Shown piece by piece: positions 1,338 to 63,926 of a DNA stretch of 64,000 nucleotides. The stretch lies in assembly GCA_965206955.1 (NCBI GenBank), contig OZ242252.1, positions 2,307,771 to 2,371,770 of the forward strand, read 5' to 3'. Below the pieces are notes generated by a model that saw only the letters and a list, made by a program, of their open reading frames with translations, had not been told where the DNA came from and made no database searches. Within the stretch, counting starts at the first letter, position 1, and every line of letters starts with the position of its first letter. A program made the position numbers and the translations under genes. The DNA is from Candidatus Foliamicus sp. Its GTDB lineage: Bacteria > Pseudomonadota > Gammaproteobacteria > Steroidobacterales > Foliamicaceae.

Positions 1338-1468
1338 CTTGGGAAGGAGGGCTTCCAGCCCTCCACGAGGGCTGGAAGCCCTCGCTCCCAGGGTCGGGGA
1401 CAGGCTCTCGACGAGGGCTGGAAGCCCTCGCTCCCAGGGTCGAGGGCAGGATGCCCTCGTTCCCAGGG
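1338..1468. repeat. REP-like palindromic repeat cluster (4-5 hairpin units), locus A
   Basis: Tandem units of GGGAAGGAGGGCTTCCAGCCCTCC / CGAGGGCTGGAAGCCCTCGCTCCCAGGG / CGAGGGCAGGATGCCCTCGTTCCCAGG lie between convergent gene ends. Confidence 0.85.
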
Positions 1469-1471
1469 GGG

Positions 1472-2215
1472 TTATTCCGCAATGATCGGGTTAACCAGGC
1501 TGCCGACACCCTCAACACGCACTTCAACCGTGTCGCCCGGCTTGACGTCCGACAAGCCATGAGGCGTTCCCGTCGAAATAATCGTGCCGGGCGCCAGGGT
1601 CATGAACTGCGAGAACCACTCGATCAGCGCCGGGATGCCGAAGATGAGGTCGCGAGTATTGCCGTTCTGGCGTAACTCGCCATTCACCCGGGTTTGAATG
1701 GACAGTTCGTGCGGGTTGGGAACATCAGCTGCGTCAACAATCCAGGGGCCTACCGGACCGAAAGTATCAAAGCCCTTGGCCTTGATCGGGGGCCGATAGA
1801 AATTCCCCACGAAGTCGCGCACCGTAAAGTCGTTGCAGACCGTATATCCGGACACGTAATCCATGGCCTCATCGCGTTGAACGCGGCGCGCCTTGCGCCC
1901 GATCACAACGCCCAGTTCACCCTCGTAGTGCATGTACTTGACTCCTGCCGGCCGCACCACCGGAGTCAGATGCCCCACCACCGAGGACGGGTTCTTGATG
2001 AAGGGGATGGGCTCCTCGGGCAATTCGGCGAAATTCAGTTCGCGGGCGTGATCGGCAAAGTTCAGCGCCAAGCCATAGATGGCCGTGTGGGCAGGGGGCA
2101 ACCAGCGCCACTCGCTCGGAGTCAGCCGCTGTCCGTCCAAATCGCGAAAACTGCCGTCTTCATCCACCGTTACTTGCAGGGCTCTTGCGTCCACTTCTAT
2201 ACATGCGGTCTTCAT
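1472..2215 (-). CDS. fumarylacetoacetate hydrolase (FAH) family protein
   Basis: 247 aa. The C-terminal block LIFGIPALIEWFSQFMTLAPGTIISTGTPHG...KPGD is typical of the FAH / 2-keto-4-pentenoate hydratase fold. Its start overlaps the upstream stop (ATGA). Confidence 0.85.
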   Translation of the reverse strand: MKTACIEVDARALQVTVDEDGSFRDLDGQRLTPSEWRWLPPAHTAIYGLALNFADHARELNFAELPEEPIPFIKNPSSVVGHLTPVVRPAGVKYMHYEGELGVVIGRKARRVQRDEAMDYVSGYTVCNDFTVRDFVGNFYRPPIKAKGFDTFGPVGPWIVDAADVPNPHELSIQTRVNGELRQNGNTRDLIFGIPALIEWFSQFMTLAPGTIISTGTPHGLSDVKPGDTVEVRVEGVGSLVNPIIAE

Positions 2216-4137
2216 GCCAGTTCACTCTCCAGTCGGGTAAAGAATTCAAGGGATTGGGGATTCGCCAGGGCCTTGCGATTTGCAACCGGGCGGCCGTGGA
2301 TCAGCTCGCGCACCGCCAGTTCACTGATCTTTCCGCTAACCGTTCGAGGCAGATCCGGGGCAAAGATAATCTTCGCCGGAACGTGCCGCGGGCTGGCCTG
2401 ACGCCGCAATTCACTGCGCACCTTGTCCTTGATCTCCTCGAGAAATCGCGCGTCCTCCCGCACCTGCAGGAACAATACGATGCGAGTGTCGCCTTCGTAC
2501 TCCTGGCCCACTGCGAGCGCTTCTTCGACTTCATCCAAGGCTTCAACCACGCGGTAAATCTCGGCCGTTCCGATGCGATTGCCGCGGGGATTGAGGGCCG
2601 CATCGGAGCGGCCATAGATGATCATGCCTCCGGTTGCGGTGATTTCCGCAAAGTCGCCATGGGTCCACACGCCGGGGAACCGGTCGAAGTAGGCCCGCTG
2701 ATATTTCTCGCCGCGGGCATCGTTCAGGAATCGCAGCGGCATGGAGGGGAAGGGGCGCGTGCAAACCAGTTCACCCGGCTGTTCCCGCACCGAGTGCCCT
2801 TCACTGTCGAATACATCCACGGCCATGCCCAGCGCCCGGCAGGGCATCTCGCCCCGATAAACGCTGAGCATGGGGTTGCCGGCGATGAAACAGCCCAGCA
2901 ACTCCGTCCCGCCGGCGATGGACGCCAGCATTGCATTGCTTGAGACCTCACGATAAACGTAGTCGTAGCTCTGCGGCGCAAGCGGTGAGCCGGTCGACAA
3001 TAACACTCGGAGCTCGGTGAGATCGAACTCGGCGCCGGGGCGCACGCGCGAGTTTTCCATGTTCTTGAGATACGCGGCGCTGGCGCCGAAAATGTTCACG
3101 CCCTCGTCGGCGCAAATCTTCCACAGGGCGCCGGGGGAAGGGTGCAGAGGAGATCCTTCGTACAACAATAGGGTGCAGCCCGTTGCCAGACCGCTTGCCA
3201 GCCAGTTCCACATCATCCAGCCGCAATTGGTCAGGTAGTAGAACGTGTCGTCGGGTGTAAGTCCGGCATGCAAACGGTGCTCTTTTACGTGCTGCAGCAG
3301 CGCTCCGCCGGCACGGTGGACAATGCATTTGGGCGCGCCGGTGGTTCCGGAAGAAAACACAACGTAGAGCGGATGATCGAACGGCAGCTGCGCAAACTCA
3401 GGCATTGCAGGGGCGCCGAATTCCGGGTAAGCGACAACGTTCCCGCCGCATGGAAGCGATGCAGTCCCGCCGAGGTTGGCGACCAGCACCGTTGCGAGCA
3501 GGCTCGGCAAACCCTCGCGGATTTCCTCTAGCTCGGCAAGACGTGATAGCCGACGGCTTCGCCAGTAATAGCCATCCGCCCCAAGCAGAACTTTGGGCCG
3601 CAGCATGCTGAAGCGCTCAAGAACAGCCGCGACCCCAAACTCCTGGGAGCAGGAACTGAATACGGCCCCGATACTCGCCGCTGCCAGCATGAACACGACT
3701 GTCTCTGGACGATTCGGCATCCAGGCCGCCACGGTGTCGCCTTGGCGAACGCCCAGCCCGGTAAGGCCAGCCGCGACGCGCCCCACCTCCCGGCGCAACT
3801 CCCCGTAGCTCATTTCCATCCGGCGGCCGGCTTCGTCGAGATAAATGAGGGCGCGGCGCGAAGCGTCCTGCCAAAGCAGGTTCTCCGCGAAATTCAGCCG
3901 GGCGCCGGAGAACCATTGCACATCCTGCATCCGCTCCCCTTCCGTAAGGACCGTATCCCACTCTTTACTGGCGCGAATCCCACAGAATCGCCACAACCGG
4001 GCCCAGAAATCCTCGGGGTCTTCAACCGACCACTGATGCAGGGCAGGGTAGTCGGAATGCCCCGATTCGCGCATGAACTGCGCCATGGCGCTGGCGCGCG
4101 CCCGTTCCGGCGAAGGCGTCCAAAGGCAAGTGCTCAC
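2212..4137 (-). CDS. aacS: acetoacetyl-CoA synthetase (acetoacetate--CoA ligase)
   Basis: 641 aa. AMP-binding motif FSSGTTGAPKCIVH. The N-terminus (HQWSVEDPEDFWARLWRFCGI) is characteristic of acetoacetyl-CoA synthetases. Confidence 0.85.
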   Translation of the reverse strand: MSTCLWTPSPERARASAMAQFMRESGHSDYPALHQWSVEDPEDFWARLWRFCGIRASKEWDTVLTEGERMQDVQWFSGARLNFAENLLWQDASRRALIYLDEAGRRMEMSYGELRREVGRVAAGLTGLGVRQGDTVAAWMPNRPETVVFMLAAASIGAVFSSCSQEFGVAAVLERFSMLRPKVLLGADGYYWRSRRLSRLAELEEIREGLPSLLATVLVANLGGTASLPCGGNVVAYPEFGAPAMPEFAQLPFDHPLYVVFSSGTTGAPKCIVHRAGGALLQHVKEHRLHAGLTPDDTFYYLTNCGWMMWNWLASGLATGCTLLLYEGSPLHPSPGALWKICADEGVNIFGASAAYLKNMENSRVRPGAEFDLTELRVLLSTGSPLAPQSYDYVYREVSSNAMLASIAGGTELLGCFIAGNPMLSVYRGEMPCRALGMAVDVFDSEGHSVREQPGELVCTRPFPSMPLRFLNDARGEKYQRAYFDRFPGVWTHGDFAEITATGGMIIYGRSDAALNPRGNRIGTAEIYRVVEALDEVEEALAVGQEYEGDTRIVLFLQVREDARFLEEIKDKVRSELRRQASPRHVPAKIIFAPDLPRTVSGKISELAVRELIHGRPVANRKALANPQSLEFFTRLESELA

Positions 4138-4161
4138 AGCGCAATTATCGCCTCAGACCAC

Positions 4162-4190
4162 CCTGGGAAGGAGGGCATCCTGCCCTCGAC
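4162..4190. repeat. single REP-like hairpin unit, locus B
   Basis: CCTGGGAAGGAGGGCATCCTGCCCTCGAC, the same core as the other loci. Confidence 0.7.
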
Positions 4191-4263
4191 TATCAACTGG
4201 ATTTGTCGCCCCTTCCGCTCAAGCGAGAGTTTCGCGAGCGGAAACGCCAAGCAGCCTAACTTA

Positions 4264-9021: not shown

Positions 9022-9045
9022 CTTTGGGAGCATTCGCCGCGGATA

Positions 9046-9145
9046 GCGCTGCGCTGATGCGCAAGGAGTAATGGAACGAGGGCATCCTGCCCTCGGCGAG
9101 GGCAGGATGCCCTCGTTCCCAGCGAAAGGATGCCCTCGTTCCCAG
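9046..9145. repeat. REP-like composite element, locus C
   Basis: GCGCTGATGCGCAAGGAGTAATGGAACGAGGGCATCCTGCCCTCGGCGAGGGCAGGATGCCCTCGTTCCCAG...GGATGCCCTCGTTCCCAGTC. It is nearly collinear with locus D (15322-15421). Confidence 0.85.
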
Positions 9146-9288
9146 TCAAACCGTGTTTCGTAATCGCCAACCTCCTCGGTTCAATCCGGCTTGCATTTTG
9201 GCTTTACAAAGCCTGAGCTGGGCGCCACCTTTGAGCCGGCGTCTGGGGTTTGTGTGCTGCGTGCATACGTATCGGGAGTAATCGAGTG

Positions 9289-15296: not shown

Positions 15297-15321
15297 CGGG
15301 CAGGGCGCCTAGGCGCGGGCC

Positions 15322-15421
15322 GCCGTTGCGCTGACGCGCAAGGAGTAAAGGAACGAGGGCATCCTGCCCTCGTCGGGGGCAGGATGCCCTCGTTCCCAGT
15401 AACGGATGGGCTCGTTCCCAG
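15322..15421. repeat. REP-like composite element, locus D
   Basis: GCGCTGACGCGCAAGGAGTAAAGGAACGAGGGCATCCTGCCCTCGTCGGGGGCAGGATGCCCTCGTTCCCAG...CTCGTTCCCAGTC. It abuts the thiolase stop codon. Confidence 0.85.
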
Positions 15422-16597
15422 TCAAGGGATTTCAACGGCGACGGCTACGGCCTCCCCGCCGCCGATACAAAGAGCCGCGACGCCGCGCCCGCCGCCGCGA
15501 TCCTGAAGTGCGTGGATCAGCGTAACCAGGATGCGGGCGCCGCTGGCTCCGATCGGGTGGCCGAGCGCACAAGCGCCGCCGCGCACATTGACTTTTTCGT
15601 GCGGCAGATCAAGGTCGCGCATTGCCGCCATCGTGACGCAGGCAAAGGCTTCGTTGATTTCGAACAAATCCACATCGGCCACCTTCCAACCCACCTTATC
15701 CAGGAGCTTCCCGATCGCGGGTCCGGGAGCGGTTGTAAACCATTCGGGGGCCTGTGCGTGAGATGCGTGACCGACCAATCTGGCCATTGGGTCCAGGCCA
15801 AGGCTCCCGGATTGGCTGGCGCTAAGCATGAGCAAGGCGGCGGCGCCGTCGGATATGGAGGAACTGGAGGCGGCGGTTACGGTGCCGTCGCGCGCAAATG
15901 CCGGGCGCATGCTCGGAATCCTGCCCAGTTCGCAACGTCCTGGTTCCTCGTCCTCACAAACTCTGAAGGTCTTGCCGCGGCGTGAAAAGGTGACCTCGAT
16001 GATTTCCCGCGCGAACTCTTCGCTGGAATCCAACGCCCGGGTGACCGACTCGGTCGCAAAGTCATCCTGCTCCCGGCGGCTGAACTGGTAGCGCCGGGCG
16101 GTCTCCTCGGCGAAATGGCCCATCATCTGACCGTCGTAGGGATTCTGCAGTCCGTCGAGGAACATGTGATCGCGCAATTCCTTGTGCCCCATTCTCAGTC
16201 CATCGCGCGCCTTCTCCACCAGATAAGGCGCGTTGGACATGGATTCCATGCCTCCGGCAACAATGACCATTCCCGGATCCGCGAGGATGCGATCATGCGC
16301 CAGCATTGCCGAAAACAGCCCGGACCCGCAGACCTTGCTGATCGTAGCGCAGGGAGTGGCGGTCGACAGGCCGGCCGCCAGGGCGGCCTGGCGCGCGGGC
16401 GCCTGACCGAGCCCGGCAGGCAATACGCAGCCCATCAGCACTTCGCTGATTTCATCCGCTGACCGCCCTGTATCTGTCAGGCATGCTTGAATTGCAGCCG
16501 CCCCCAGGGCAGTAGCCGTAACCGGGGCCAAGGCGCCCAGCATGGCGCCGATGGGCGTGCGCCGCGCGGCGGCGATGACAGTATGTCGTTGGCTCAT
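15422..16597 (-). CDS. acetyl-CoA C-acetyltransferase (thiolase II)
   Basis: Active-site Cys context ISKVCGSGL, and C-terminal GGACALGHPIGASGARIL and ALCIGGGEAVA. The ATG at 16597 (MSQRHTVIAAARRTPIG) is preferred over the TTG at 16609. Confidence 0.9.
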   Translation of the reverse strand: MSQRHTVIAAARRTPIGAMLGALAPVTATALGAAAIQACLTDTGRSADEISEVLMGCVLPAGLGQAPARQAALAAGLSTATPCATISKVCGSGLFSAMLAHDRILADPGMVIVAGGMESMSNAPYLVEKARDGLRMGHKELRDHMFLDGLQNPYDGQMMGHFAEETARRYQFSRREQDDFATESVTRALDSSEEFAREIIEVTFSRRGKTFRVCEDEEPGRCELGRIPSMRPAFARDGTVTAASSSSISDGAAALLMLSASQSGSLGLDPMARLVGHASHAQAPEWFTTAPGPAIGKLLDKVGWKVADVDLFEINEAFACVTMAAMRDLDLPHEKVNVRGGACALGHPIGASGARILVTLIHALQDRGGGRGVAALCIGGGEAVAVAVEIP

Positions 16598-24566: not shown

Positions 24567-24634
24567 GGAACGAGGGCTTCCAGCCCTCGACGAGGGCAGG
24601 ATGCCCTCGTTCCCAGGGGGGAGCCTCGTTCCCG
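24567..24634. repeat. REP-like hairpin pair, locus E
   Basis: GGAACGAGGGCTTCCAGCCCTCGACGAGGGCAGGATGCCCTCGTTCCCAGG...CCTCGTTCCC, between convergent xerD and qor. Confidence 0.85.
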
Positions 24635-24646
24635 GCGTGATAGAGG

Positions 24647-36538: not shown

Positions 36539-36546
36539 AGATCGCT

Positions 36547-36770
36547 TGCATGGAACAACCTGGGCCCGAGGGCTTCCAGCCCTCCACGAGGACAGGATGT
36601 CCTCGTTCCCAGCGCGTGTTCCCAGCGCGTCCGCGCGCCGGCGCCGGCGGAGTGGAAACTTGCATGGAACAACCTGGGACCGAGGGCTTCCAGCCCTCCA
36701 GGACGAGGACAGGATGTCCTCGTTCCCAGCGCGTGTTCCTTGCGCGTAAGCGCGGCGCGGGCGCTGTGAA
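36547..36770. repeat. two tandem long-form REP-like elements, locus F
   Basis: TGCATGGAACAACCTGGG(C/A)CCGAGGGCTTCCAGCCCTCC...GAGGACAGGATGTCCTCGTTCCCAGCGCGTGTTCC occurs twice, with copies starting at ~36547 and ~36661. Confidence 0.85.
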
Positions 36771-36831
36771 TACTTCCCCCAAAGCGAGATGGGAATAAGG
36801 GTGATCGTGTATATTCAACGCTTCTTTCTAC

Positions 36832-36907: not shown

Positions 36908-36910
36908 AGT

Positions 36911-36938
36911 CCTTGTGAGGTCCGGGCCAGGCACAAGG
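36911..36938 (+). terminator. stem-loop immediately after tRNA-Val
   Basis: CCTTGTG-N14-CACAAGG followed by TTCACGTTT. Confidence 0.4.
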
Positions 36939-37263
36939 TTCACGTTTCGCACCCGAGACATCGTTTGACGTTCTGCGCTACGAAGGGTCTCGCTGGGGGT
37001 GCGACTCATCCCGCGTCCTGGTTGAAGATTCCCGGGTCATAGTTGAGGAAGCCAAGCTGCCGGGGCGCTTGCGTCAGTCCGCTCATCTGCGCAGCGGAGA
37101 GGTCCGCAGAAATGTCACGCGCAGCATTCCTCTGTGCGGTTGACTATTGGCACAGTCCTATCTGACTATGTAATAAGACTCAAAGAAAGAACGGTTCGAA
37201 TTGGCGCAGCTTTGTGCTGTTCTGGCCCGAGAAAGACAGGCCGCCTCCCTAAAGCGGGGATCT

Positions 37264-40781: not shown

Positions 40782-41827
40782 TGTTTGCCGGTGGCTGCGC
40801 AAGACCCTCGCACGACAAGCGTGGTAGGCAACCGCAGCGATTGAACTCTCTTGCCGTCAATCATGTCCACAATTCTTGCCGCAAGCGCCGCACCCGCCAG
40901 CCTGCTGTCCTGAGCCACTGTGGTCAAGGGCGGAGAGAATTCGGCCGCCAGCGGAATATCGTCATATCCAATCACCGAAACGTCTTTGGGAACGTCCAGG
41001 CCAGCCTGCTCGATTGCTCTGATGGCGCCCATCGCGACCATGTCGTTCTGTGCAAAGAGACCATCAAAACATCGGCCATGTTCAACCAGAAACCGGCGCA
41101 TAGCCTCATAGCCGGACTGGTGACTGATAGAAGCAGGCAAGTTCCGTAGCGAACGCGCGCCTCGGCGGCGGACCCTTGCCTCGAACCCCGCCCAGCGTTG
41201 CCCCTGTTCGGGCATTCGGGTGTCGCCGAGAAACAGAAAATCATGTCGCCCGACATCCAGGAGCCGCGAAGCTGCGAGTTCCCCACCATGATAGTTGTTG
41301 CTGCCCACCGCGGGATAAGCCCCCCCCTTGACGTCGGCGCCCCAAAGCACGGCCGGCAGCTTTGCCTGGCGAATTCCCTCAAGCATCCGGCCTCCATCAT
41401 TCCTGCCCAGGATGATCGCACCGTCAACGGGTTTTGACGCTATGGCGTTCCCCCAATCCTCCGATGCGCCCGTTTCGGCGCACAACAGAAGATCAAATCC
41501 TTTCACGGTAAGAGCCTCAGCGATGCTTGAGAGCAGGGCCAGTGGAAACGGCTCCGAGAGCGGATGATGGACGTCGGTATCGAAAGCGAGCGCGATGGTG
41601 TGCGATCGCTGCAGCCGCAAGTTGCGCGCCGTCTTGTTGAAACGATAGTCATGTTCGCGTGCGATCTTGCGGATATTCTCCTTGGTATCCGGGCGCACCA
41701 ACGGACTATCCCTCAACGCGCGCGATACCGTTATCTTCGATACGTTTGCAATCCGCGCGATATCCGCCATCGTTCGGGCAGGCTTCCTTTTCGGGTTATC
41801 GCCGTTTGGCCTATTCGCTCTTGACAT
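40778..41827 (-). CDS. LacI-family transcriptional regulator
   Basis: HTH motif MADIARIANVSKITVSRAL plus a periplasmic-binding-like effector domain. The start at 41827 is uncertain. Its 3' end overlaps the GH13 3' end by 4 nt. Confidence 0.88.
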   Translation of the reverse strand: MSRANRPNGDNPKRKPARTMADIARIANVSKITVSRALRDSPLVRPDTKENIRKIAREHDYRFNKTARNLRLQRSHTIALAFDTDVHHPLSEPFPLALLSSIAEALTVKGFDLLLCAETGASEDWGNAIASKPVDGAIILGRNDGGRMLEGIRQAKLPAVLWGADVKGGAYPAVGSNNYHGGELAASRLLDVGRHDFLFLGDTRMPEQGQRWAGFEARVRRRGARSLRNLPASISHQSGYEAMRRFLVEHGRCFDGLFAQNDMVAMGAIRAIEQAGLDVPKDVSVIGYDDIPLAAEFSPPLTTVAQDSRLAGAALAARIVDMIDGKRVQSLRLPTTLVVRGSCAATGKH

Positions 41828-41940
41828 GCCGTTTTTCTTGCCCCCCGCCGTGAATGGCGCCAGGAAACCGTAAGGCACATCAAATCACGCGCCTCTTGCC
41901 GGGTTCCAGGTCCAGACAACCTGATCATAGCAAACTTCTA

Positions 41941-41968
41941 TTGACATCGATACCATTTTTTCTATACT
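41941..41968 (+). promoter_or_regulatory. near-consensus sigma-70 promoter upstream of the TBDR
   Basis: TTGACA-N16-TATACT, about 85 nt upstream of the ATG at 42054. A partial LacI-type half-site (TGCAATCG) follows it. Confidence 0.5.
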
Positions 41969-42053
41969 GTTTAGTGCAATCGAACTTTCGCAGGCATGAA
42001 TCCGGACGCAACCAGCCCGGATGAATGGGCTTTCCAGGAAAGGGCAGGAGGAA

Positions 42054-44402: not shown

Positions 44403-44596
44403 CCCAAGCTCCAAAAAACCGGCAGGTGCGGAACCAAAAAATGCGCCCATTTACCCTCTAGAGCGAGGTTCCGCACTTGCCGGTCCTATCCGCACGCCAT
44501 TGCCGGTCGCAACATACTCTTACGGGGCCAGACCTGAGATTCAATCCCAGCCCCTCCAGCCGGTAGGTAAGGGTGCAAGGGAAGACACGACATCTG

Positions 44597-46255
44597 ATGG
44601 CAAGGCATGATTGGTCAAGGACGCGCGGCGCTGCGCATCGAACCGGGAATTGCCGGGGCGCAATGACAGCGGCGCTGCTATCCGTGCTGGCGCCTGTTGC
44701 CGGGCTTGGAGCCGCAACGGATTGCGAGCCCAAAGGATCCCTCAGGCTGCAAGACACGGAGATTGTCTCTGCCCACTTCTACGACGAAGGCACGGTCAAG
44801 GATGCGGGCCGCCCCTTCCCGCCGACTTCTGTTCCGCGGCATTGCCGGGTTTCGGGCGTCGTACGGCCCGTGCCCAATTCCGAAATCGGCTTCCAGGTTT
44901 GGCTGCCGCAAGAGAACTGGAACGGAAGACTGATTGGTGTCGGAAATGGCGGTTATGGCGGCCGTATTCTCTTGCAAGGGGGTCTTGCCGAGGCCGTAAA
45001 GCGAGGTTACGCGGCCGTTTCGACCGACACCGGACATTCAGGTTCGGCCATCGATACACACTGGGCATACCAGGAGAAAGAAAAGATCATCGATTGGGGA
45101 CATCGCGCCGTTCACCTGATGACGGTCAAGGCAAAAGAGATTGTGCAAATACACTACGGCCGGCCGGTCGAAAAGTCCTATTTCATCTCTTGCTCGAACG
45201 GTGGGCGCCAGGGCTTGATGGAGGCGCAGCGCTATCCGAATGACTACGACGGGATCCTGGTCGGAGCGCCGGCCATTGATTTTACGGGCCTGGTCGCAGC
45301 CTTTGCCTGGAACTACCTTGCACAGAACGGCAGCAGCGAGAGTGTCATACCGCCCGCGTTCGCAAGCCACATTTCAAAGACAGTCAATGAGCAATGCGAC
45401 CACCTGGACGGGGTCAGAGACGGACTCATTTCCGATCCGCGCACATGCAGGGTCGATTTTGCAGAGTTCCTTTGCGGAGAAGAGCAAAGCGGCGACTGCT
45501 TGAGCAAGTCCCAACTCGAAGCGCTGCTGAAGATATACGGTGGTCCGAAAAATGGGTCCGGACAACAGATCTACCCCGGCTGGCCGGTCGGGGGAGAGGC
45601 AGGAACGAGTCCCGTCTCCGGCTGGGAAATCTGGACCCTGGGCACAAGACCCCACCAGCGTAGCTACGTCGATGGTTTCTTCCAGCACCTGCTCGGCCGG
45701 GGTTCCGGTTGGAGCGTCAGGCACATGGATTTTGATCACGACACACTTGAGGCGAAACGGGAATTGGGAAGTCTTATTGACGCGACCAACCCGGACTTAA
45801 GGGCATTTGCAGAAAAAGGCGGAAAGCTGATCATCTATCACGGTTGGTCCGATGAGGCGGTTCCCGCGGGCGGGAGCATTCGATATTTTGAAGATCTGCA
45901 GCGTTTCATGGGTGCGGAAAAGGTTGAGCAATTCGCACGACTTTACCTGGTGCCGGGCATGCATCATTGCTTCGGAGGGCACGGGCCGAGCCTGTTCAAT
46001 CATCTGACTGCGCCCATTTCTCCGGCAGATCCAAGCCGTGACATTGCCGCTGCCCTGGCAACCTGGGTGGAGCACGACGCTGCACCCGGGGCGCTGATTG
46101 CGGTTGAGCCGGAGAATCTCTTCGAGGCGACCTTCGACCTTTCCCTCACGATTCCCATACGGACGGGATTGTTGTGTCCGTACCCACAAAAGGCCCTGCT
46201 GCGGGGAAAGGCATTGGATCCCATGCTGGCGTCCAGCTACTACTGCAGCGATTGA
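44597..46255 (+). CDS. tannase/feruloyl-esterase family alpha/beta hydrolase
   Basis: Nucleophile context YFISCSNGGRQG and VPGMHHCFGG. Together these give the CS...HC disulfide-linked catalytic motif of the family. The start is ambiguous (44573, 44597 or 44663). Confidence 0.8.
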   Translation: MARHDWSRTRGAAHRTGNCRGAMTAALLSVLAPVAGLGAATDCEPKGSLRLQDTEIVSAHFYDEGTVKDAGRPFPPTSVPRHCRVSGVVRPVPNSEIGFQVWLPQENWNGRLIGVGNGGYGGRILLQGGLAEAVKRGYAAVSTDTGHSGSAIDTHWAYQEKEKIIDWGHRAVHLMTVKAKEIVQIHYGRPVEKSYFISCSNGGRQGLMEAQRYPNDYDGILVGAPAIDFTGLVAAFAWNYLAQNGSSESVIPPAFASHISKTVNEQCDHLDGVRDGLISDPRTCRVDFAEFLCGEEQSGDCLSKSQLEALLKIYGGPKNGSGQQIYPGWPVGGEAGTSPVSGWEIWTLGTRPHQRSYVDGFFQHLLGRGSGWSVRHMDFDHDTLEAKRELGSLIDATNPDLRAFAEKGGKLIIYHGWSDEAVPAGGSIRYFEDLQRFMGAEKVEQFARLYLVPGMHHCFGGHGPSLFNHLTAPISPADPSRDIAAALATWVEHDAAPGALIAVEPENLFEATFDLSLTIPIRTGLLCPYPQKALLRGKALDPMLASSYYCSD

Positions 46256-46292
46256 TCCAAGCGGCAAGTCGAGAACAAGCAGAAACAGCACA

Positions 46293-47972
46293 ATGAACCG
46301 GATTACGAAAAGCAAGGTTATCGGGCCTGAGCACCCGCCATTGCTTGAGAAGACCATTGGGAGTCATCTCAAGGACATTGCCACCCTACATGGAGACTGT
46401 CCGGCGCTAGTGGTCTGCCACCAGGACGTACGATGGACCTATGCCACGTACCTGAAGCAGATCGACAGACTCGCAGCGGGATTCCTGGCACTGGGTGTCC
46501 GCCCCGGAGATCGGGTCGGGGTATGGTCGCCAAACTGCTTCGAATGGTGTCTGACCCAGTTTGCAACGGCGCGAATCGGGGCTGTCCTGGTCTGCATCAA
46601 CCCCGCCTACCGCGTCTTCGAACTGGAATATGCCCTCAACCAGTCGGAGTGCAGGGCAATCGTGCTGGCCGAATGCTTCAAATCCAGCAATTACCTGGAA
46701 ATGCTTGAAGAATTGGCGCCGGAACTGAAGTCAAGCGAGCCGGGGAAGCTCAATTCCCGCCGGCTACCGAAGCTGGAAACCGTAATACGCATTGGTGATT
46801 CTCCGGCGCCGGGTATCCTCAATTTCACGGAAGTATGGGACATGGGACGCGAACGGGAAAGAAACGAGCTTCGATTGATTGAAGGGAGTCTTGATCCCCA
46901 TGATCCGATCAATATTCAATTCACCAGCGGCACAACAGGAAGCCCCAAGGGCGCCACGCTGACCCACCACAATATTCTGAACAACGCCTATTTTGCCGGT
47001 CGGGAAATGGGAATGAAGCCCGGAGAGAGGCTTTGCATTCCGGTACCGCTTTACCACTGTTTCGGTATGGTACTGGGCAACCTCGTATGTGTAGCACACG
47101 GCGCTGCCGCTGTCTTTCCGGGACCCGTCTTCGATGCAGGCGATACCCTTCAGGCGGTAGCGCTGGAACAATGCACTGGACTGCACGGCGTGCCAACCAT
47201 GTTTCTTGCGGAATTGCGCCACGAAAGCTTTGAAAGCTACGAAACCTCTTCGCTGCGTACCGGAATCATGGCGGGTGCTCCCTGTCCGGTCAGCCTGATG
47301 AACGAGGTGATTGAAAGGATGCATATGCCGGAAGTTCTGATCGGTTATGGTCAGACCGAACTCAGCCCCCTGAACTGCCTTACGCACGCCGATGATCCGA
47401 TTGAGAAACGGGTCGGCACTGTGGGAACTGTAGGGCCGCACTTGGAGCTCAAGATTGTGGACAGCGACGACCGCTGCGTACCCGTTGGCATGCAGGGCGA
47501 AATATGCACGCGAGGATATTCGGTAATGCAGGGCTATTGGCAAGAACCCATGCGTACGGCGGAAGCCATCGACGAAGACGGTTGGCTGCATTCCGGCGAC
47601 CTGGGCGAATTGGACGCAGAGGGCTACGTAAAAGTTACCGGGCGGCTCAAGGACATGATCATTCGGGGTGGAGAGAACATCTATCCCAAAGAGATCGAGG
47701 AATTCCTCTATTCGCATCCCGCGGTTCAGGAAGTGGCCGTTTTCGGCGTGCCCGATGAGAAGTTTGGAGAGCAGGTTTGCGCCTGGATTCAGTTGCGTGC
47801 CGGTCACAGCGCGAATGAGAAGAGCATCCGCGCGTTTTGTGAGGACGGAATCTCGCATTTCAAGATTCCCCATTACATTAGCCTTGTGCACGCGTTTCCG
47901 ATGACGGTCACCGGCAAGATGAAAAAGTTTGAAATGCGAAACGCTATGATCAGGGAATTGGGACTGCGATAG
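46293..47972 (+). CDS. AMP-dependent acyl-CoA synthetase/ligase
   Basis: The ATG at 46293 gives 559 aa. Motifs FTSGTTGSPKGATLTHHN, GYGQTE, GDLGELDAEGYVKVTGRLKDMIIRGGENIYPKEIE. Confidence 0.9.
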   Translation: MNRITKSKVIGPEHPPLLEKTIGSHLKDIATLHGDCPALVVCHQDVRWTYATYLKQIDRLAAGFLALGVRPGDRVGVWSPNCFEWCLTQFATARIGAVLVCINPAYRVFELEYALNQSECRAIVLAECFKSSNYLEMLEELAPELKSSEPGKLNSRRLPKLETVIRIGDSPAPGILNFTEVWDMGRERERNELRLIEGSLDPHDPINIQFTSGTTGSPKGATLTHHNILNNAYFAGREMGMKPGERLCIPVPLYHCFGMVLGNLVCVAHGAAAVFPGPVFDAGDTLQAVALEQCTGLHGVPTMFLAELRHESFESYETSSLRTGIMAGAPCPVSLMNEVIERMHMPEVLIGYGQTELSPLNCLTHADDPIEKRVGTVGTVGPHLELKIVDSDDRCVPVGMQGEICTRGYSVMQGYWQEPMRTAEAIDEDGWLHSGDLGELDAEGYVKVTGRLKDMIIRGGENIYPKEIEEFLYSHPAVQEVAVFGVPDEKFGEQVCAWIQLRAGHSANEKSIRAFCEDGISHFKIPHYISLVHAFPMTVTGKMKKFEMRNAMIRELGLR

Positions 47973-48080
47973 CGGAGCGGCGGCCGCACTTGAACAGGGC
48001 GGAGCCTCGGCAATGTGGAAACGAAGTGCCGGCATGAGCGGTTTGCAGGGCCACGTGTGGGTCGTTTCGATGAGAATGTC

Positions 48081-49040
48081 ATGACTCAAAGCGCTTTGAT
48101 TCCATTTTCCAGTCCCGCAAGCCGGCTGGCAGCAGAAAAGAGCGCCGAGGAATTCGCTTCTCCTGGTGCGCCGCTGGACGCCGACATAAGGCAACTCCGC
48201 GCCCACTACTCCGAGTTGGACCGTATGAGGCTTGAGAGAATTCAGAGCCGGTTTGCGGCAGAGGTTGAGACCCGGGAAATTGGCGGCGTTAGTACGCGAT
48301 GGCTAACGCCAGCAAAAGGTGTCCCACGGAAAAATGCCCGGCGTGTCCTCATGAACCTTCACGGCGGAGCATTCATGTGGGGAAGGCGCTACGGAAGTCT
48401 GGTTGAGTCGATCCCTATTGCCGTGACCGGCGGATTCAAGGTTGTTGCCGTTCACTACCGTCTGGCGCCAGAACACAGGTTTCCCGCAGCATCCGAGGAC
48501 GCTGCGGCGGTGTATGCGGAATTGCTTAAGGACTACGACGCTGATTCAATCGGCGTGTATGGCTGTTCGGCCGGCGGAGTGTTGACCGCGCAACTGATTG
48601 CCTGGCTTTATCAGTCCGGGCTGCCGCTGCCCGGTGCGATCGGCACTTTTTGCGGCACCGGCCTGGAATTGGGTGGAGACAGCAGCACACTTTGGGAGGC
48701 CCGTTCGGGCCAACCGGGCCAATCCTCTTCTGGGTACTTGCCCAAGCTTCTAAGCCTGCCTTACTTCCGTGACATTCTTCCAACTGATCCGCTTGCTCTT
48801 CCTCTTACGTCCAGGGAAATACTCAGCAAGTTCCCGCCAACACTATTGCTGAGCGGCGGGCGTGATTTCGCCGCAAGTTCGCTGACGCTGGCCCATCGAT
48901 TGCTAACCGCGGCCGGCTGCGACTCCCGGCTGTTCCTATTTGACGGACTTTGGCACTCCTTTCTCCTGGATTCAGACCTACCCGAATCAAGTGAGGCGTA
49001 CGCTCTGATCTGCCGTTTTTTCTCGGAGTGCCTTCGCTAG
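48081..49040 (+). CDS. alpha/beta hydrolase, hormone-sensitive-lipase-like esterase (family IV)
   Basis: Oxyanion motif LHGGAF and nucleophile elbow GCSAGG. Confidence 0.8.
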   Translation: MTQSALIPFSSPASRLAAEKSAEEFASPGAPLDADIRQLRAHYSELDRMRLERIQSRFAAEVETREIGGVSTRWLTPAKGVPRKNARRVLMNLHGGAFMWGRRYGSLVESIPIAVTGGFKVVAVHYRLAPEHRFPAASEDAAAVYAELLKDYDADSIGVYGCSAGGVLTAQLIAWLYQSGLPLPGAIGTFCGTGLELGGDSSTLWEARSGQPGQSSSGYLPKLLSLPYFRDILPTDPLALPLTSREILSKFPPTLLLSGGRDFAASSLTLAHRLLTAAGCDSRLFLFDGLWHSFLLDSDLPESSEAYALICRFFSECLR

Positions 49041-49092
49041 TGTCGTGTTCCGCAGGTAACCGCGCCAAGCAGTTACTTGCGGAACACGACAC
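49040..49092 (+). terminator. long stem-loop after the esterase gene
   Basis: 21-bp inverted repeat with one mismatch, GTGTCGTGTTCCGCAGGTAAC-N11-GTTACTTGCGGAACACGACAC. It starts at the stop codon and has no T-tract. Confidence 0.5.
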
Positions 49093-49256
49093 CAGGACTA
49101 CAGCTCCAGCCCTGAATCAAAAAAAGCGAACATGAAGTTGGGAGGTTCGGGGCGCTGGAATAGAATTCTTGTCACGCTGCCGGTTAACGCATTTCGTCGC
49201 ATCTGGAAAACAGTGGACGGGAATCCGGTATCGAGCAATGAATACTACGCTCCAGA

Positions 49257-52200
49257 ATGTCGCATCAACCCATCGATGACTTTCACTACGCGATTCGCGA
49301 GTGGTTCAGTGAGGCGTTTCGACAGGCCACCAAGGTACAAGAGGGAGCCTGGCCGGCTATTGCCGCCGGTCGTCACGCGCTGCTGGCGGCTCCCACCGGG
49401 TCGGGCAAGACGCTCGCGGGGTTCCTGGCGGTTATCGATCAGCTGTTGCAGCGCAGCCGCCGCGAAGCGCTTCCCGAGCGAACGGAGGTCGTATACGTAT
49501 CGCCGTTGCGAGCGCTGTCGAACGATATACGGCGAAACCTGAAGCAGCCCCTTGCGGCCATCGATCAGCAACTGAACAATGCGGGAGAGCAGCCATCGGG
49601 TATATCCGTGGGGCTGCGCACCGGCGACACTTCTCAGGCCGAACGCCGCCGTTTGCTTAAGCGGCCGCCGCACATTCTGGTAACCACTCCCGAGTCGCTA
49701 TACCTGCTTCTGACCTCGCAAGGCGGCCGGGGCATGCTTTCCGACGTTCGCACGGTCATTCTGGATGAATTGCACGCGCTGGCCGGAGGCAAGCGCGGCG
49801 CCCACCTTGCGCTGACACTGGAGCGGCTGGAGATGCTTACTCAAAAGCCCTTGCGGCGCATCGGCATGTCGGCTACCCAGCGGCCCCTGGAGCGCATGGC
49901 GCGCTTCCTGCTGGGCACGCGGAAGGAGGATTGCGCCATCATCGACGCAGGCGCAGACCGTGCACGGGATCTGGGCCTGGAACTGCCCGGCTCGCCGCTT
50001 CAGGCTGTCATGCCTCTTGAAGTGTGGTCCGAGATCTACGAGCGTCTGGCTGATCTGGTGCGGGAACACGATTCAACCCTGGTGTTCGTCAATACCCGCC
50101 GCCTGTGCGAGCGCGCAGCGCGCCAACTGAGCGAGCGTCTGGGCGAGGACGCGGTGGCATCCCACCATGGCAGCATGTCGAAAGAGCATCGGATGTCAGC
50201 CGAGGAACGGCTGAAGTCCGGGCGCCTGAAGGTCCTGATTGCTACGGCGTCGCTGGAACTGGGTATCGACATCGGTTCGGTGGACCTTGTTTGCCAGCTG
50301 GGTTCTCCGCGAGGGATTTCGGTGTTTCTGCAGCGCGTCGGGCGGTCCGGACACACCGTGGGAGAAACACCGAAGGGGCGCCTGTTCCCGCTGACCCGAG
50401 GCGAATTGGTCGAGAGCCTCGCCTTGCTGAAGGCAGCGGCGGACAACGAGCTTGAGGAAATTCGCATTCCTCCCGGCGCGCTCGATGTTCTTGCGCAGCA
50501 GCTTGTGGCCGAGGTGGCCTGCGGTGACCGCGAGGTCAGGGCTTTGCATGCGGCGTTCTCGCGCGCCTGGCCCTACCGGGAGCTCGGCTTTGAGGAGTTC
50601 CTGCGGGTCGTGAAAATGCTTGCCGATGGCTACTCCACCCGCCGAGGACGATCCGGCGCCTACCTGCATTACGACAGCGTGCGACTGCAGCTCCGGCCAC
50701 GCAGGGCCGCGCGCATTACGGCGCTGACCAACGGCGGAACCATTCCGGATCAATTCGACTACGACGTGGTGCTGGCGCCATCCGAAATCCGAATCGGCAC
50801 GCTGAATGAGGATTTTGCGTTCGAGAGCCTTCCGGGGGACATTTTCCAGCTCGGCAACACATCCTACCGGATCCAGCGGGTCACTTCCGGAAAGGTCTAC
50901 GCGGAGGATGCGCACGGCGCGCCCCCGACCATCCCGTTCTGGTTCGGCGAAGCACCCGGCCGCAGCAGCGAACTGTCCCTGCGGGTAGCGGCAATCCTGG
51001 ATGGTGTGGACGCTCGCCTGGCCAATGGCGGCGAGGCGGAACGGTGGCTGGAAAAGATTCCGGGCGCAACCGTCGAGGCCGCAGGGCAGGCCGTGGAGTA
51101 TCTGGCGGCGGCGCGCGCCACTTTGGGTGTGTTGCCAGGCGCGGGACGTATCGTGATCGAGCGGTTCCTGGATGAACTGGGCGATATGCATGTGGTGGTC
51201 CATTCGCCTCTGGGGTCGCGACTGAATCGAGCCTGGGGGCTTGCGCTGCGGAAACGCATCTGCCGCAAGTTCAACATTGAGCCTCAGGCGGCGGCGCTGG
51301 ACGACAGCATCGTCATTTCGCTTGGGCCCGGACACAGCTTTCCGCTCAAGGACATCGCGGGCTGGCTGCATTCGTCCTCGGTGCGCGATGTCCTGGTTCA
51401 AGCAGTGCTGGATTCGCCCATGTTTCCGACGCGCTGGCGATGGGCCGCCACTACCGCGCTGGCGATACTCCGCAATCGCAATGGAGAACGGCGCCCGGCG
51501 CAGTTTCAGCGTGGCGACGCCGAAGACCTGATGGTGGCGTTGTTCCCGGATCTCGTGGCCTGCGCCGAAAACCTCACCGGGGACCGGGAGATACCCGACC
51601 ATCCGCTTGTTAATCAGACACTCACCGACTGCCTTGAGGAGTTGATGGATGTGGACGGTTTGCTCGCGCTCCTGCAATCCCTTGAAGGCGGTGAGGCGCA
51701 AATACACTTTGCCGAACCGGCGTCGGCCTCGATACTGGCCCAGGAAGTCATCACCGCCAAACCCTACGCATTCCTGGATGACGTGCCGGCCGAGGAGAGG
51801 CGAACCCAGGCCATTCGAACCCGTCACTTGCTGGGCGTCGAAGACGCGGCCCAGCTGGCACGTCCGGATCCGCAGGCGATTGCCGATGTGTGCGCCGAAG
51901 TCTGGCCTCGGCCGCGCGACGCGGATGAGTTGCACGATGCGCTCAATCTGGCTGGATTCCTGACCGCAACGGAACTTGGCGACCACGAATCGCTGGTTGA
52001 TGAACTTGCTGCACAGGGACGATCCGTGCAGGTTGCCGCGCCGAGCGGCCAGGTCTTGTGGGGCTGCATTGAGCGCCGCAACGAGCTGATCGCCTGCTGC
52101 AATTCGTCCGGCGACAGTCTTGCCGTTGCGGCCCGGGAGCTCCTTCGCAGCCGCCTGGAAATACTGGGGCCGGTTACGGCCGGGGAACTGGCCGCTCCCC

Positions 52201-55057: not shown

Positions 55058-55248
55058 CCAGAACCTGGGAACGAGGGCTTCCAGCCCTCGACGAGGGCAA
55101 GATGCCCTCGCTCCTTTGTTCCCTCCCCGTCAGCGCAACGGCGCCCGCTACGCGTACTTGCATGGAACAACCTGGGAACGAAGGCTTCCAGCCTGGGAAC
55201 GAGGGCTTCCAGCCCTCGCCGAGGGCGGGACGCCCTCGCTCCCAGCGG
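55058..55248. repeat. REP-like composite cluster, locus G
   Basis: CTGGGAACGAGGGCTTCCAGCCCTCGACGAGGGCAAGATGCCCTCGCTCCTTTGTTCC...TGCATGGAACAACCTGGGAACGAAGGCTTCCAGCCTGGGAACGAGGGCTTCCAGCCCTCGCCGAGGGCGGGACGCCCTCGCTCCCAG. Confidence 0.85.
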
Positions 55249-57003: not shown

Positions 57004-57007
57004 ACCC

Positions 57008-57165
57008 ATGGGAAGGAGGACACCCGGACCTCCGTCGAGGGCGGGGACGCCCTCATCCCCATGGAACAACCTGGGAACGAGGGCTTCCAGCCCTCGACGA
57101 GGGCAAGATGCCCTCGCTCCATTGTTCCTTGCTCGTCAGCGCGTCGGCGCCCGCAGCGAATACTC
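57008..57165. repeat. REP-like composite element, locus H
   Basis: ...CGAGGGCGGGGACGCCCTC...ATGGAACAACCTGGGAACGAGGGCTTCCAGCCCTCGACGAGGGCAAGATGCCCTCGCTCCATTGTTCCTTGCTCGTCAGCGCGTCGGCGCCCGC. Confidence 0.85.
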
Positions 57166-59884: not shown

Positions 59885-59885
59885 C

Positions 59886-61037: not shown

Positions 61038-61113
61038 CCATTCGGCAACCGTCAGATAGGATTCCTGGGGCTGGCTTGCGATGTGCGGCCAGCTGTCCGT
61101 TCCTCCAATTGAA

Positions 61114-62946: not shown

Positions 62947-62973
62947 CGCTCGATAACTCCCTGGAAGTTTTCG

Positions 62974-63079
62974 CAGCGGGCGCCGCTGCGCTGACGCGCA
63001 GGGAACCAACGCTGGGAACGAGGGCGTCCCGCCCTCGACGGAGGGCAAGATGCCCTCCCTCCCAGATTGTTCCATGCAA
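62974..63079. repeat. REP-like composite element, locus I (opposite orientation)
   Basis: GCTGCGCTGACGCGCAGGGAACC...CTGGGAACGAGGGCGTCCCGCCCTCGACGGAGGGCAAGATGCCCTCCCTCCCAGATTGTTCCATGCA. Confidence 0.85.
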
Positions 63080-63229
63080 GTGTGAATGCAGCCCACATAT
63101 CCCTGAGGCTTGCGCATAGTCGCACGCGGACCAGGGTTTGTAAAGGATGGCGCCAGCACCTAAAATGCGAGTCGAATTGTCCCTGGCGGCCCGGTATTAC
63201 CTCACCTTGCACGGCAAAAAGCGATAGCC

Positions 63230-63805
63230 ATGAAAGCGTTACTTTGTCTTGATTTCGAAAACGATATAGTCCACCTGAAGGGCAAAGTGTCGGGCAAGGG
63301 CTATGCGGCCTATGATGCCGACCACGGGACGCTGTCACTAGTGCGCGGCGTCCAGGACAGGTTTCGGGCTGCCGGCCTGCCGGTCATTCACGTGCGGGTC
63401 GGCTTCTATCCGGGTTACGCGCAGAGTCCCAAGGGATCGCCGCTAATGGGGCAGGCGCACCAATTCGGCGCCTTCGATCTGAGTGGGTGGGGTGGCCAAT
63501 TCGTCGATGACGTCGCTCCCCAGGGAGAGGAACTGGTCATTACCAAGCACCGTGTCGGCAGTTTTCACGCAACGGCAATGGAACTGACCTTGCGCAACAT
63601 GGGCGTAACGCACATTTTTCTGGCCGGCGTTGCAACCGATATGGTTGTGGAGTCCACGGCAAGAGAGGCGCATGATCGCGATTTCAGCGTGAGCGTGATC
63701 GCCGATTGCTGTATCGCGGCCAATGAAGAAGACCAGCTGCGCAGCCTCAAGAATATGCAGAAATTGGCCACCATCCTGACCAGCGGTGAGATCGAACTCG
63801 ACTAA
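63230..63805 (+). CDS. cysteine hydrolase / isochorismatase-family protein
   Basis: 191 aa with LLCLDFEND, THIFLAGVATDMVVESTAREAHDRDF and a catalytic Cys context VIADCC. Confidence 0.82.
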   Translation: MKALLCLDFENDIVHLKGKVSGKGYAAYDADHGTLSLVRGVQDRFRAAGLPVIHVRVGFYPGYAQSPKGSPLMGQAHQFGAFDLSGWGGQFVDDVAPQGEELVITKHRVGSFHATAMELTLRNMGVTHIFLAGVATDMVVESTAREAHDRDFSVSVIADCCIAANEEDQLRSLKNMQKLATILTSGEIELD

Positions 63806-63810
63806 GGCCC

Positions 63811-63926
63811 TGCATGGAACAACCTGGGAACGAGGGGTTCCGGCTCCCCGATCAGGGTCGGGGACAGGGTCTCGACGAGGGCAAGAAACGTCATTCCCGC
63901 GAAAGCGGGAATGCCCTCGTTCCCAG
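63811..63926. repeat. REP-like long-form element carrying a nested second hairpin type, locus J
   Basis: TGCATGGAACAACCTGGGAACGAGGGGTTCC...GGGTCGGGGACAGGGTCTCGACGAGGGCAAGA[AACGTCATTCCCGCGAAAGCGGGAA]TGCCCTCGTTCCCAG. Confidence 0.8.

Follow-up and report, generated by a model that had tools for sequence, protein, structure and literature searches.

In Escherichia coli, repetitive extragenic palindromic (REP) sequences and the bacterial interspersed mosaic elements (BIMEs) built from them are small palindromes outside genes whose conserved head is unpaired, arranged mostly as inverted pairs of two subtypes (compare the Y and Z types of BIMEs), and a single-copy HUH/tyrosine transposase, TnpA_REP, is flanked by REPs. 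In Pseudomonas fluorescens SBW25, inverted doublets (REP doublets forming hairpins, or REPINs) are dominant, singlets look like remnants, tandem clusters are ordered, the REP-associated tyrosine transposase (RAYT) has its own REPINs on either side, the doublets form a diverse cloud, REPs are few where the RAYT is missing, and REPIN excision has been shown by reads (PMC3116915). The GTAG super-family, as set out in PMC3733652, combines a tag, a few unpaired bases, a 6–9-bp stem and a 2–3-nt loop with complementary-stem subfamilies, head-outward (HH) dimers and a preference for heterodimers, a known but unexplained trait of REP families. Excision aside, these traits recur in a repeat family of Candidatus Foliamicus sp. 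that we describe here from a window of 64,000 nucleotides (the whole stretch of DNA analysed, C1:2307771-2371770) of a single-contig 3.53-Mb genome (G000; 61.4% G+C). Ten loci of this window carry hairpins of the family, and we estimate at roughly 0.87 the probability that they belong to a REP/REPIN population maintained by one RAYT.

The family is a new member of the known REP/REPIN–RAYT kind of selfish or domesticated bacterial DNA, and it has the features of unit, copy number, placement, doublet form and flanked RAYT that define REP, REPIN and REPtron, with differences of detail from each described system. E. coli REPs have a GTAG head and a bulged, imperfect palindrome, whereas those of Foliamicus have a CTGG(GAAC) head, a perfect 8-bp helix and a 3-nt loop, with a spacer of only 3 nt between partners and a density of roughly 0.4 hairpins per kb. 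The doublets of SBW25 measure 71 or 110 bp (PMC3116915), whereas in Foliamicus the spacer is 3 nt and the arms are usually of different subtypes. The tags of the GTAG super-family listed in the text of PMC3733652 (GYAG, GYRG, GTRG, GTMG and GTGG) all start with G, from which CTGG differs, although the layout of the Foliamicus repeat (tag + GA + 2 nt + stem) resembles GTAG-1/2, first base aside. As in GTAG-15 of Anabaena variabilis and CGTC-1 of Halothiobacillus neapolitanus (PMC3733652), REP dimers can be nested in outer palindromes, but in Foliamicus the outer palindrome is trailed by an extra module with its own variable hairpin. Less ordinary are the CTGG rather than GTAG head, the heterotypic doublets, the long forms with an outer palindrome and signs of cross-phylum transfer. 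Precedents on record in PMC3733652 include similarly short spacers (1–2 bp in Opitutus terrae dimers), heterodimers, complementary-stem subfamilies, REPs that overlap RAYT ends and outer-palindrome nesting.

The repeat unit and its doublets

A first-pass annotation of the window had listed ten loci with the hairpin GAGGGC-N-TCC-N'-GCCCTC, flanked by GGGAAC/GTTCCC, and had called the family REP-like. A covariance model whose training copies all lay outside the window, applied to the window with filters off, returned 28 oriented REP units at E<0.01, all inside these ten loci, so that none had been missed and none over-called; the sole other hit at this threshold was a 17-nt partial match at 52515 (12.4 bits). 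Rfam at gathering thresholds found only the tRNA in the window, and no curated RNA family matches the repeats. The core palindrome, GAGGGC-N5-GCCCTC, has a 7-bp stem, which includes a variable closing pair, and a 3-nt TCC or TCT loop, and the bases flanking the stem on either side form an eighth, outer pair that brings the stem to 8 bp. When each copy is oriented via its loop (TCC/TCT versus GGA/AGA), the unit is seen to be asymmetric: a REP of 27 nt with an unpaired head, CCTGGGAAC, a G+C-rich 8-bp stem and the TCC (or TCT) loop. The oriented consensus reads CCTGGGAAC-GAGGGC-W-TCC-W'-GCCCTC-G, of which the flanks noticed at first pass are part, and conservation stops about 10 nt 5' of the stem. 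The head reads C-T-G-G (CTGGGAAC): 89% of copies have G at −6 and 82% have T at −7, preceded by C. As single-stranded DNA, a single REP folds at −9.4 kcal/mol.

Exact matches to GAGGGC-N5-GCCCTC number 1,243 genome-wide and 0 in the reversed, non-complemented genome; at up to one mismatch, the figures are 1,423 and 13. Centres of other lengths than 5 nt are represented by 0–2 copies each, save for 47 copies with 6 nt. The 1,423 hairpins group into 543 loci that cover 37.2 kb, or 1.05% of the genome. Being short, palindromic, highly repeated, mostly extragenic and enriched at gene 3' ends and in convergent gaps, the family deserves the REP-like label.

The usual genomic form is a REPIN, in which two REPs with heads outward have their stems 20 nt apart and a 3-nt spacer (G-N-C) between them. 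Head-outward doublets at 18–22 nt number 347, with a spacer of exactly 3 nt in 296, while the opposite, head-inward arrangement occurs alone at only 2 loci and lone singlets account for only 154 of the 1,423 hairpins. Tandem arrays of single REPs (period 26–29 nt) and of doublets (~45 nt) also occur. About nine in ten doublets are heterotypic, combining two REP subtypes that mostly have a T-A and an A-T closing pair respectively, whereas homotypic (perfect) doublets are rare (about 30 of 347). The spacer base tracks the polarity of the doublet, GAC following the T-type arm in 51 versus 14 cases for the commonest core. The 296 tight doublets comprise 177 distinct 49-mers, of which the master 49-mer makes up 21 (7%), with a mode of 2–3 differences; such a diverse cloud is as published for REPINs and unlike the uniform copies of an insertion sequence (IS). 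Finally, about 70 doublets are nested in an outer inverted repeat, with L-arm TGCATGGAACAA and R-arm TTGTTCCNTGCG, and after this outer palindrome comes a second module (R-module) composed of CGTCAGCGC, a variable hairpin and GAAAACTCC. We refer to these as long forms.

A single RAYT flanked by the same repeats

The window contains no Y1 transposase, in agreement with the first-pass statement that no RAYT lies there. The only Pfam Y1_Tnp match of the genome (C1:1054846-1055076; 28.6 bits, cut-off 23) falls within an open frame (C1:1054195-1055190) that is single-copy and lies 1.25 Mb from the window. This gene scores 94.6 bits with the NCBIfam REP_Tyr_transpos equivalog (cut-off 80), has an HUH motif (HVH) and the catalytic-tyrosine context YIHQNP, and its only relative in PDB is E. 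coli TnpA_REP (4ER8, E 3.5e-10). It is flanked on both sides by REPs of this very family in inverted orientation, with six tandem 45-bp doublets and one more upstream, and a downstream doublet that overlaps its last codons. REPs flanking a RAYT are the defining arrangement of a REPtron, and REPs overlapping RAYT ends are on record in PMC3733652. The gene occupies the same locus in related genomes (L002–L004; four Foliamicus genomes including G000), and the orthologues in the three other genomes keep the ATG (M-N/K-N/D-x-E-V/I), with frames that are open through REPs of other number or orientation.

REP number in the genus goes with the presence of this gene. In counts made with one exact pattern, GAGGGCNTCYNGCCCTC, which under-counts diverged copies and for which the assembly quality of fragmented metagenome-assembled genomes (MAGs) may matter, closed genomes with the RAYT have 1,161 (G000), 581 (G001), 803 and 366 hairpins, and closed genomes without it have 0, 0, 2, 32, 52 and 56. 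What is left in genomes that lack the RAYT is mostly of the G-C closing-pair type, and the pattern agrees with the published decay of REPINs after RAYT loss. In RAYT-less G008, which is more distant, the gaps orthologous to window loci F and G are REP-free.

Window loci in related genomes and the state of the RAYT

Local turnover is rapid: between genomes that are 92–96% identical, orthologous loci (Table 1) have been inverted or collapsed, have gained units or carry nested inserts. Save for one segment, the window and G001 are collinear, with no REP position private to either in the compared region. The four units of locus A in G000 correspond to one REPIN in G001, and locus B is kept there, although its 3' arm has lost 1 nt. 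At locus D, the G001 doublet has collapsed to a single palindrome, a likeness to the remnant singlets of SBW25, and the R-module is missing there. At locus E, the G001 REPIN (window 24567-24618) is the exact reverse complement of that in G000, asymmetric spacer base included; thus the doublet was inverted or replaced in place. Locus F has two long-form units in G000, one in G001 and none in G008; none appears in the alignment with G002, but a doublet was found inside the same gap, so that this site may not be empty. The first ~110 nt of locus G (REPIN, R-module and L-arm) are missing in G001, and G008 has no REP there. At locus H, the R-module is present in G000 only, being missing at the orthologous sites of G001 and G002. 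Locus I is conserved in both, and locus J is a clean REPIN in G001, with neither nested insert.

Several observations count against a population maintained by this RAYT. Across the 64 kb, no new REP site and no transposition event is seen between G000 and G001, all differences being local. The genomes with a RAYT are each other's closest relatives (95–97% identity in the genes tested), forming one close clade, so that the association between RAYT and REPs comes from few independent events; moreover, a draft genome with the RAYT (G014, 78% complete) has only 46 hairpins. The sole in-frame ATG of the G000 gene, whose frame corresponds to L084:910-1905, is upstream of the six tandem 45-bp REPIN units, which would translate as six 15-residue repeats (GLPALDEGRMPSPPE), and because the frame from this only ATG passes through them, both start codon and activity are uncertain in G000. 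In G001 the RAYT frame is shortened at the N-terminus, and yet that genome has 581 hairpins. Instead of a GTAG head, the importance of which for E. coli TnpA_REP has been demonstrated, the repeats have CTGG. Lastly, an isolated doublet is predicted to fold at minimum free energy as one long hairpin (−29.1 kcal/mol when heterotypic, −35.7 kcal/mol when homotypic), which is favoured over two small ones (about 2 × −9.4 kcal/mol).

Some of these observations would be explained if the family were a fossil, its RAYT inactive here and the differences between strains due to slippage, recombination and decay. The REP positions common to G000 and G001, with local differences only, fit this view, as do the low share of the master sequence among doublets, the filling of the RAYT N-terminus by REP-encoded repeats and the truncation of the G001 copy. 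We nevertheless consider a fossil unlikely, at something like one chance in a few, since the catalytic motifs and frame of the G000 RAYT are intact, G000 has twice the hairpins of G001, and the two strains are set apart by G000-only long-form units at loci F and G, the gain of an R-module at H and the exact inversion at E. Even active REPINs are, moreover, reported to duplicate extremely slowly, so that few new sites are expected in 64 kb.

Pairing within the REP

The first-pass annotation had argued for selection on hairpin structure from complementary variants at the position next to the loop (CATCCTG, CTTCCAG, CGTCCCG) and from a double change deeper in the stem at locus F (GAGGAC...GTCCTC), and the copies of the whole genome bear this out. 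The closing pair, at which these variants are real and T-A, A-T and G-C are all common, is complementary in 1,197 of the 1,243 exact-arm copies (96%) and unpaired in just 46, so that unpaired variants are far from being as common as paired ones. At pair 5, the change from G-C to A-T seen at locus F (36588, 36705) is present on both sides in 69 copies genome-wide, versus 22 with a one-sided change, and the outer pair is C-G in 862 copies and G-C in 134. At the other five pairs, one-sided changes exceed double ones, as expected for the slow decay of individual copies. A within-genome alignment in which 96.5% of cells are paired was hand-filtered of shortened copies and is thus optimistic; the unbiased figure comes from sites picked by head and loop only, with no stem presupposed, of which 662 of 884 have 7/7 Watson–Crick pairs and 76 have six, while a reversed-head control gave 10 sites, none above four pairs. 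As variants that keep pairing have been copied many times and those that break it have not, the compensatory variants are mostly subfamily markers and not independent events at each locus.

The structure under selection could also be the long hairpin formed between the two arms of a REPIN, and not the 8-bp hairpin of each REP. Its lower folding energy in the isolated doublet and the dominance of doublets, in line with the REPIN concept, speak in its favour, but we regard it as rather improbable. Self-complementary arms are not required for a long hairpin, yet each arm is self-complementary; the arms differ at the closing pair in ~90% of doublets, although this pair is complementary within each REP, which points to the small hairpin as the conserved structure. 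Furthermore, the homotypic doublets that would form the best long hairpin are the rare ones, the long form is predicted to fold as two separate small hairpins, and in the solved structure of the TnpA_REP complex the bound DNA is the hairpin of a single REP (PMC3479197).

By analogy with E. coli TnpA_REP (4ER8) and the TnpA of IS200/IS605, the RAYT would act on single-stranded DNA, recognizing each small REP hairpin by its shape, one per monomer, and the head and loop by sequence. The unpaired head would serve to position a cut, and the enzyme would cut and rejoin DNA next to the hairpin, thereby copying or replacing doublets at a very low rate. Under such a scheme only variants with a paired stem would propagate, so that compensatory variants would appear as whole subfamilies. 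In RNA, the hairpins may have secondary roles, for instance at transcript 3' ends downstream of genes.

Placement relative to genes

With gene positions taken from a crude rule based on open reading frame (ORF) length and G+C content at third codon positions, 62% of the loci lie strictly between ORF calls, versus 18% for random placement. REP loci are held by ~31% of convergent, 18% of tandem and 10.5% of divergent gaps, and 43% of the adjacent 3' gene ends have the stop codon within 30 nt. The first-pass claim that all copies are intergenic holds for the ten window loci, which lie between ORFs, but not for the whole genome, where a few copies are in frame inside genes. A figure of 173 loci inside ORFs proved to be mostly an artefact, because the gene caller over-extends 5' ends through REPs, the REPIN being stop-free in all six frames; 97 of the 173 are no more than 200 nt from the start of the longest possible frame. 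In-frame REPs in real-looking genes are found at C1:1103320-1103456, 1728095-1728111 and 2236456-2236472, the hosts being the linker of a lipoyl-domain acyltransferase (E2), a biotin carboxylase and a LapB-like TPR protein, and the encoded peptides are of the ...WERGLPAL... or ...RRGQDAL... type.

Three other kinds of element were considered and rejected. Intrinsic terminators are at odds with the missing T-run, positions +17 to +30 past the stem being mostly G, A or C and usually belonging to the partner REP; the tandem periods of 26–29 or ~45 nt have no unique inserts of spacer length, as a CRISPR array would; and the defining motifs of integron attC sites are missing.

The placement after stop codons and the depletion in divergent gaps fit equally well a tolerance of harmless insertions and a secondary role as transcript 3' hairpins. 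Carried further, this leads to a reading in which the hairpins are signals selected by the host (3'-end stabilizers or terminators, gyrase or IHF-type sites, IHF being integration host factor) and the RAYT is incidental. Besides the enrichment just past stops and in convergent gaps, the stability of the hairpins (−9.4 kcal/mol for a single REP, −29 for a doublet) and published roles of this sort for some REPs (PMC3733652 and PMC3479197) are in keeping with it. As a replacement for maintenance by the RAYT, however, we find it quite improbable: 0–56 copies suffice in other closed genomes of the genus and the orthologous gaps of G008 are empty, there is no T-run past the stem, the long form shows no orientation bias (34 versus 31), and an RNA role leaves unexplained both the conserved unpaired head and the cross-phylum tie to one RAYT clade described below. 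Host use of the hairpins can hold in addition to maintenance by the RAYT, not instead of it.

Long forms and nested inserts

Both conserved ends that the first-pass annotation had ascribed to the longer forms recur genome-wide. The L-arm has about 127 matches at ≤1 mismatch, some of them spurious, and GTTCCCTGCGCGTCAGCGC plus hairpin has 147 at ≤3 mismatches versus 5 in the control. Downstream of 71 L-arms there is an R-module, ~70 nt off in most, and the length of the long form is fairly fixed at ~115 nt. As single-stranded DNA, the long form is predicted to fold into an outer stem bearing two small REP hairpins, plus the extra hairpin. The second module behaves as a separate repeat, half of its 147 copies being without a left arm, and its hairpin has compensatory variants of its own (GCAGCGG/CCGCTGC, GCCGCCG/CGGCGGC, CCGCGG/CCGTGG). 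In the window, parts of long forms are present at loci F, G, H, I and J, and degenerate second modules at C and D. The orientation of long forms is biased neither relative to the transcription of neighbouring genes (34 versus 31) nor relative to replication, with replichores taken from GC skew.

That the repeats are miniature inverted-repeat transposable elements or fragments of an ordinary IS, as the inverted ends of the long forms (TGCATGGAACAA / TTGTTCCNTGCG) and their rather constant length might suggest, has next to no chance of being right, since no parent IS or gene-carrying element with these ends was found, the genes between eight (six independent) inverted L-arm pairs 2.3–3.6 kb apart are unrelated, with only the repeat ends in common, no transposase other than the RAYT is associated with the repeats and it is flanked by plain REPs and not by long-form ends, and the copies are highly diverse, unlike IS-derived bursts.

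A few long-form scaffolds (C1 ~13081, 3526300, 632819 and 696915) hold a ~75-nt A+T-rich core and no REPIN, the core including TATCAATGACTTA, which fits the IHF consensus WATCAANNNNTTR. These scaffolds are reminiscent of the IHF-binding BIMEs (RIB/RIP) of E. coli. They also constitute a difference from Anabaena and Halothiobacillus, in which the authors of PMC3733652 found no REP-free target palindromes.

Two further hairpins are inserted within REPs. The first, a 25-nt hairpin of the form CTCCCCGATCAG(C/G)GTCGGGGACAGG, has 26 copies genome-wide; in the window there is one at locus J and a truncated one at locus A. Of the 26, 25 are at one fixed position in the REP 3' arm, with an inverted partner REP following, and the hosts are REPs of several subtypes that nearly always form the left half of a doublet. 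Either these copies mark a subfamily of REPINs that has acquired a third hairpin, or the insert is a tiny element with REPs as its target. The second, a CGTC-tagged hairpin in the loop of a REP at locus J, has about 3 to 5 related copies in the genome and fits the CGTC-1 (Neisseria dRS3-like) format given in PMC3733652.

Table 1. Repeat loci of the window, with positions counted from its first nucleotide.
Feature	Position	Strand	Composition and setting
Locus A	1337..1468	.	Four REP units, 1337+, 1365-, 1411-, 1440- (covariance hits 38-51 bits); convergent ORFs 119-1324(+) and 1472-2215(-); shortened nested 25-nt insert at about 1394-1410
Locus B	4161..4189	+	Single REP CTGGGAAG-GAGGGCATCCTGCCCTC-G, 46.2 bits
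Locus C	9044..9147	.	Degenerate reverse R-module (core 9051-9069), REPIN 9073+/9096-, REP remnant 9127-9147
Locus D	15313..15423	.	Reverse R-module (core 15328-15346), REPIN 15350+/15373-, remnant 15403-15423; convergent ORFs
Locus E	24567..24635	.	Heterotypic REPIN TTCCA + AGGAT, spacer GAC; short remnant; convergent ORFs
Locus F	36546..36790	+	Two tandem long forms: L-arms TGCATGGAACAA at 36547 and 36661, R-modules at 36618 and 36735; second REP of each REPIN is the GAGGAC...GTCCTC variant; just upstream of tRNA-Val (36832-36907)
Locus G	55063..55247	+	REPIN 55063+/55091-, R-module 55118-55136 + hairpin, L-arm 55159-55170, truncated REP 55170-55190, second REPIN 55191+/55219-
Locus H	57006..57165	+	Degenerate REPIN 57006+/57035- (4-nt loop variant), L-arm remnant, REPIN 57069+/57097-, R-module 57124-57142 + hairpin
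Locus I	62965..63080	-	Complete reverse long form in a divergent-type gap: R-module 62988-63006, REPIN 63010+/63039- (GTCCC + AAGAT), L-arm 63067-63078
Locus J	63810..63928	+	L-arm 63811-63822, REPIN with a nested insert in each REP; covariance hits 63822+ (15.2 bits) and 63899- (20.4 bits)
Nested 25-nt hairpin CTCCCCGATCAGGGTCGGGGACAGG	63844..63868	+	3' arm of the left REP of locus J
CGTC-tagged hairpin CGTC-ATTCCCGC-GAAA-GCGGGAAT	63886..63912	+	Loop of the right REP of locus J
Second modules	36618-36660, 55118-55158, 57124-57165, 62965-63006		At loci F, G, H and I

A segment of 12.4 kb (~36910-49280) lies just downstream of the tRNA-Val(GAC) gene and is missing from G001, G002 and G008. It has a lower G+C content (57–58%) and no REP, and its genes are for catabolism and uptake: a sodium:solute symporter, an alpha-amylase family enzyme, a LacI regulator, a TonB receptor, a tannase/feruloyl esterase, an AMP-dependent ligase and an esterase. 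The whole stretch from 36.8 to 55.0 kb is REP-free, as expected for recently acquired DNA.

Relatives in other phyla

A search with the RAYT gave 253 relatives, and the best 80 of the 253 loci were kept. Next to RAYT genes in these 80 loci, the pattern YYGGGANC-N7-TCY, which leaves the stem unconstrained, has 114 sites in 31 loci; 76 of the 114 have 7/7 pairs, and most of the remainder are 4-nt-loop variants that pair in a shifted register. The stem is GAGGGC in Foliamicus, Binatia and Latescibacterota, GCGGCC and GCGGGC in Chlorobium, GCCGGC in Alphaproteobacteria, GCACGC and GCCCGC in Acidobacteriota, and GCCGAC in Planctomycetota, while head and TCC loop are constant across lineages. Among 50 distinct sequences of this set, 94.3% of cells are paired versus 70.7% in shuffles (0 of 500 shuffles reach the observed value), six of the seven pairs have changed on both sides, and slid registers pair at 36–53%. 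As head and loop are kept while stems are swapped by compensatory changes, we infer that enzymes of this family would recognize the sequence of the head and loop but only the shape of the stem.

In a tree of RAYTs, Foliamicus falls inside a well-supported clade with Latescibacterota, Binatia, Thermodesulfobacteriota and some Pseudomonadales MAGs, and the Binatia and Thermodesulfobacteriota copies are nearly identical. Genomes from this group (G032, G033, G036 and G038, found via L005, L006, L009 and L012) were scanned for the GAGGGC heterodimer REPIN (GTCCC + ATCTT, 3-nt spacer), which is dispersed in those of Binatia (64 hairpins), Latescibacterota (174) and Pseudomonadales (349). The Thermodesulfobacteriota genome has 8 hairpins, none more than 17 kb from the RAYT, a distribution that looks like that of a recent arrival.

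In seven of the best 80 loci, from at least five phyla, REP, RAYT and REP form one open frame with a flanking gene (L005:1-3543, L006:1-3543, L009:25-3540, L013:1-3537, L016, L018 and L080), the RAYTs being 43–69% identical. The flanking gene encodes a DUF1156 + D12-type DNA methylase in 3 of the 3 loci scanned with Pfam (L005, L009 and L013), and a literature search for DUF1156 together with transposase returned no paper on such lodging. That the Foliamicus frame is open through its flanking REPs in four species would fit descent from a lodged copy. These observations, which depend on the taxonomy labels of MAGs and one tree, make horizontal spread of this REPIN–RAYT lineage plausible. We tentatively suggest, at a shade under even odds, that the lineage, with its CTGGGA head and TCC loop, may cross phyla by riding in frame in DUF1156 methylases, and that the more than 1,100 hairpins of Foliamicus are a chromosomal bloom to which such transfers gave rise or which preceded them. 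RAYT inheritance is held to be vertical (Bertels et al., 2017), and cross-phylum transfer, if true, would contradict the published absence of RAYTs from mobile contexts and the near-exclusively vertical inheritance of REPINs.

Significance

The population accounts for ~1% of the DNA of this genome and for most of its odd intergenic structure. For annotation it is a warning, as REPs give rise to spurious ORFs (with peptides of the GLPALDEGRMPSPPE type) and to extended start codons. It also offers a clean and very dense REPIN–RAYT system in an uncultured gammaproteobacterial genus, whose closed genomes with and without the RAYT are a natural series for the growth and decay of REPINs. A RAYT clade with a constant head and loop and a free stem points to which bases are read and which are merely paired, and the in-frame relatives in defence methylases of other phyla bear on whether REPIN–RAYT systems are strictly vertical.

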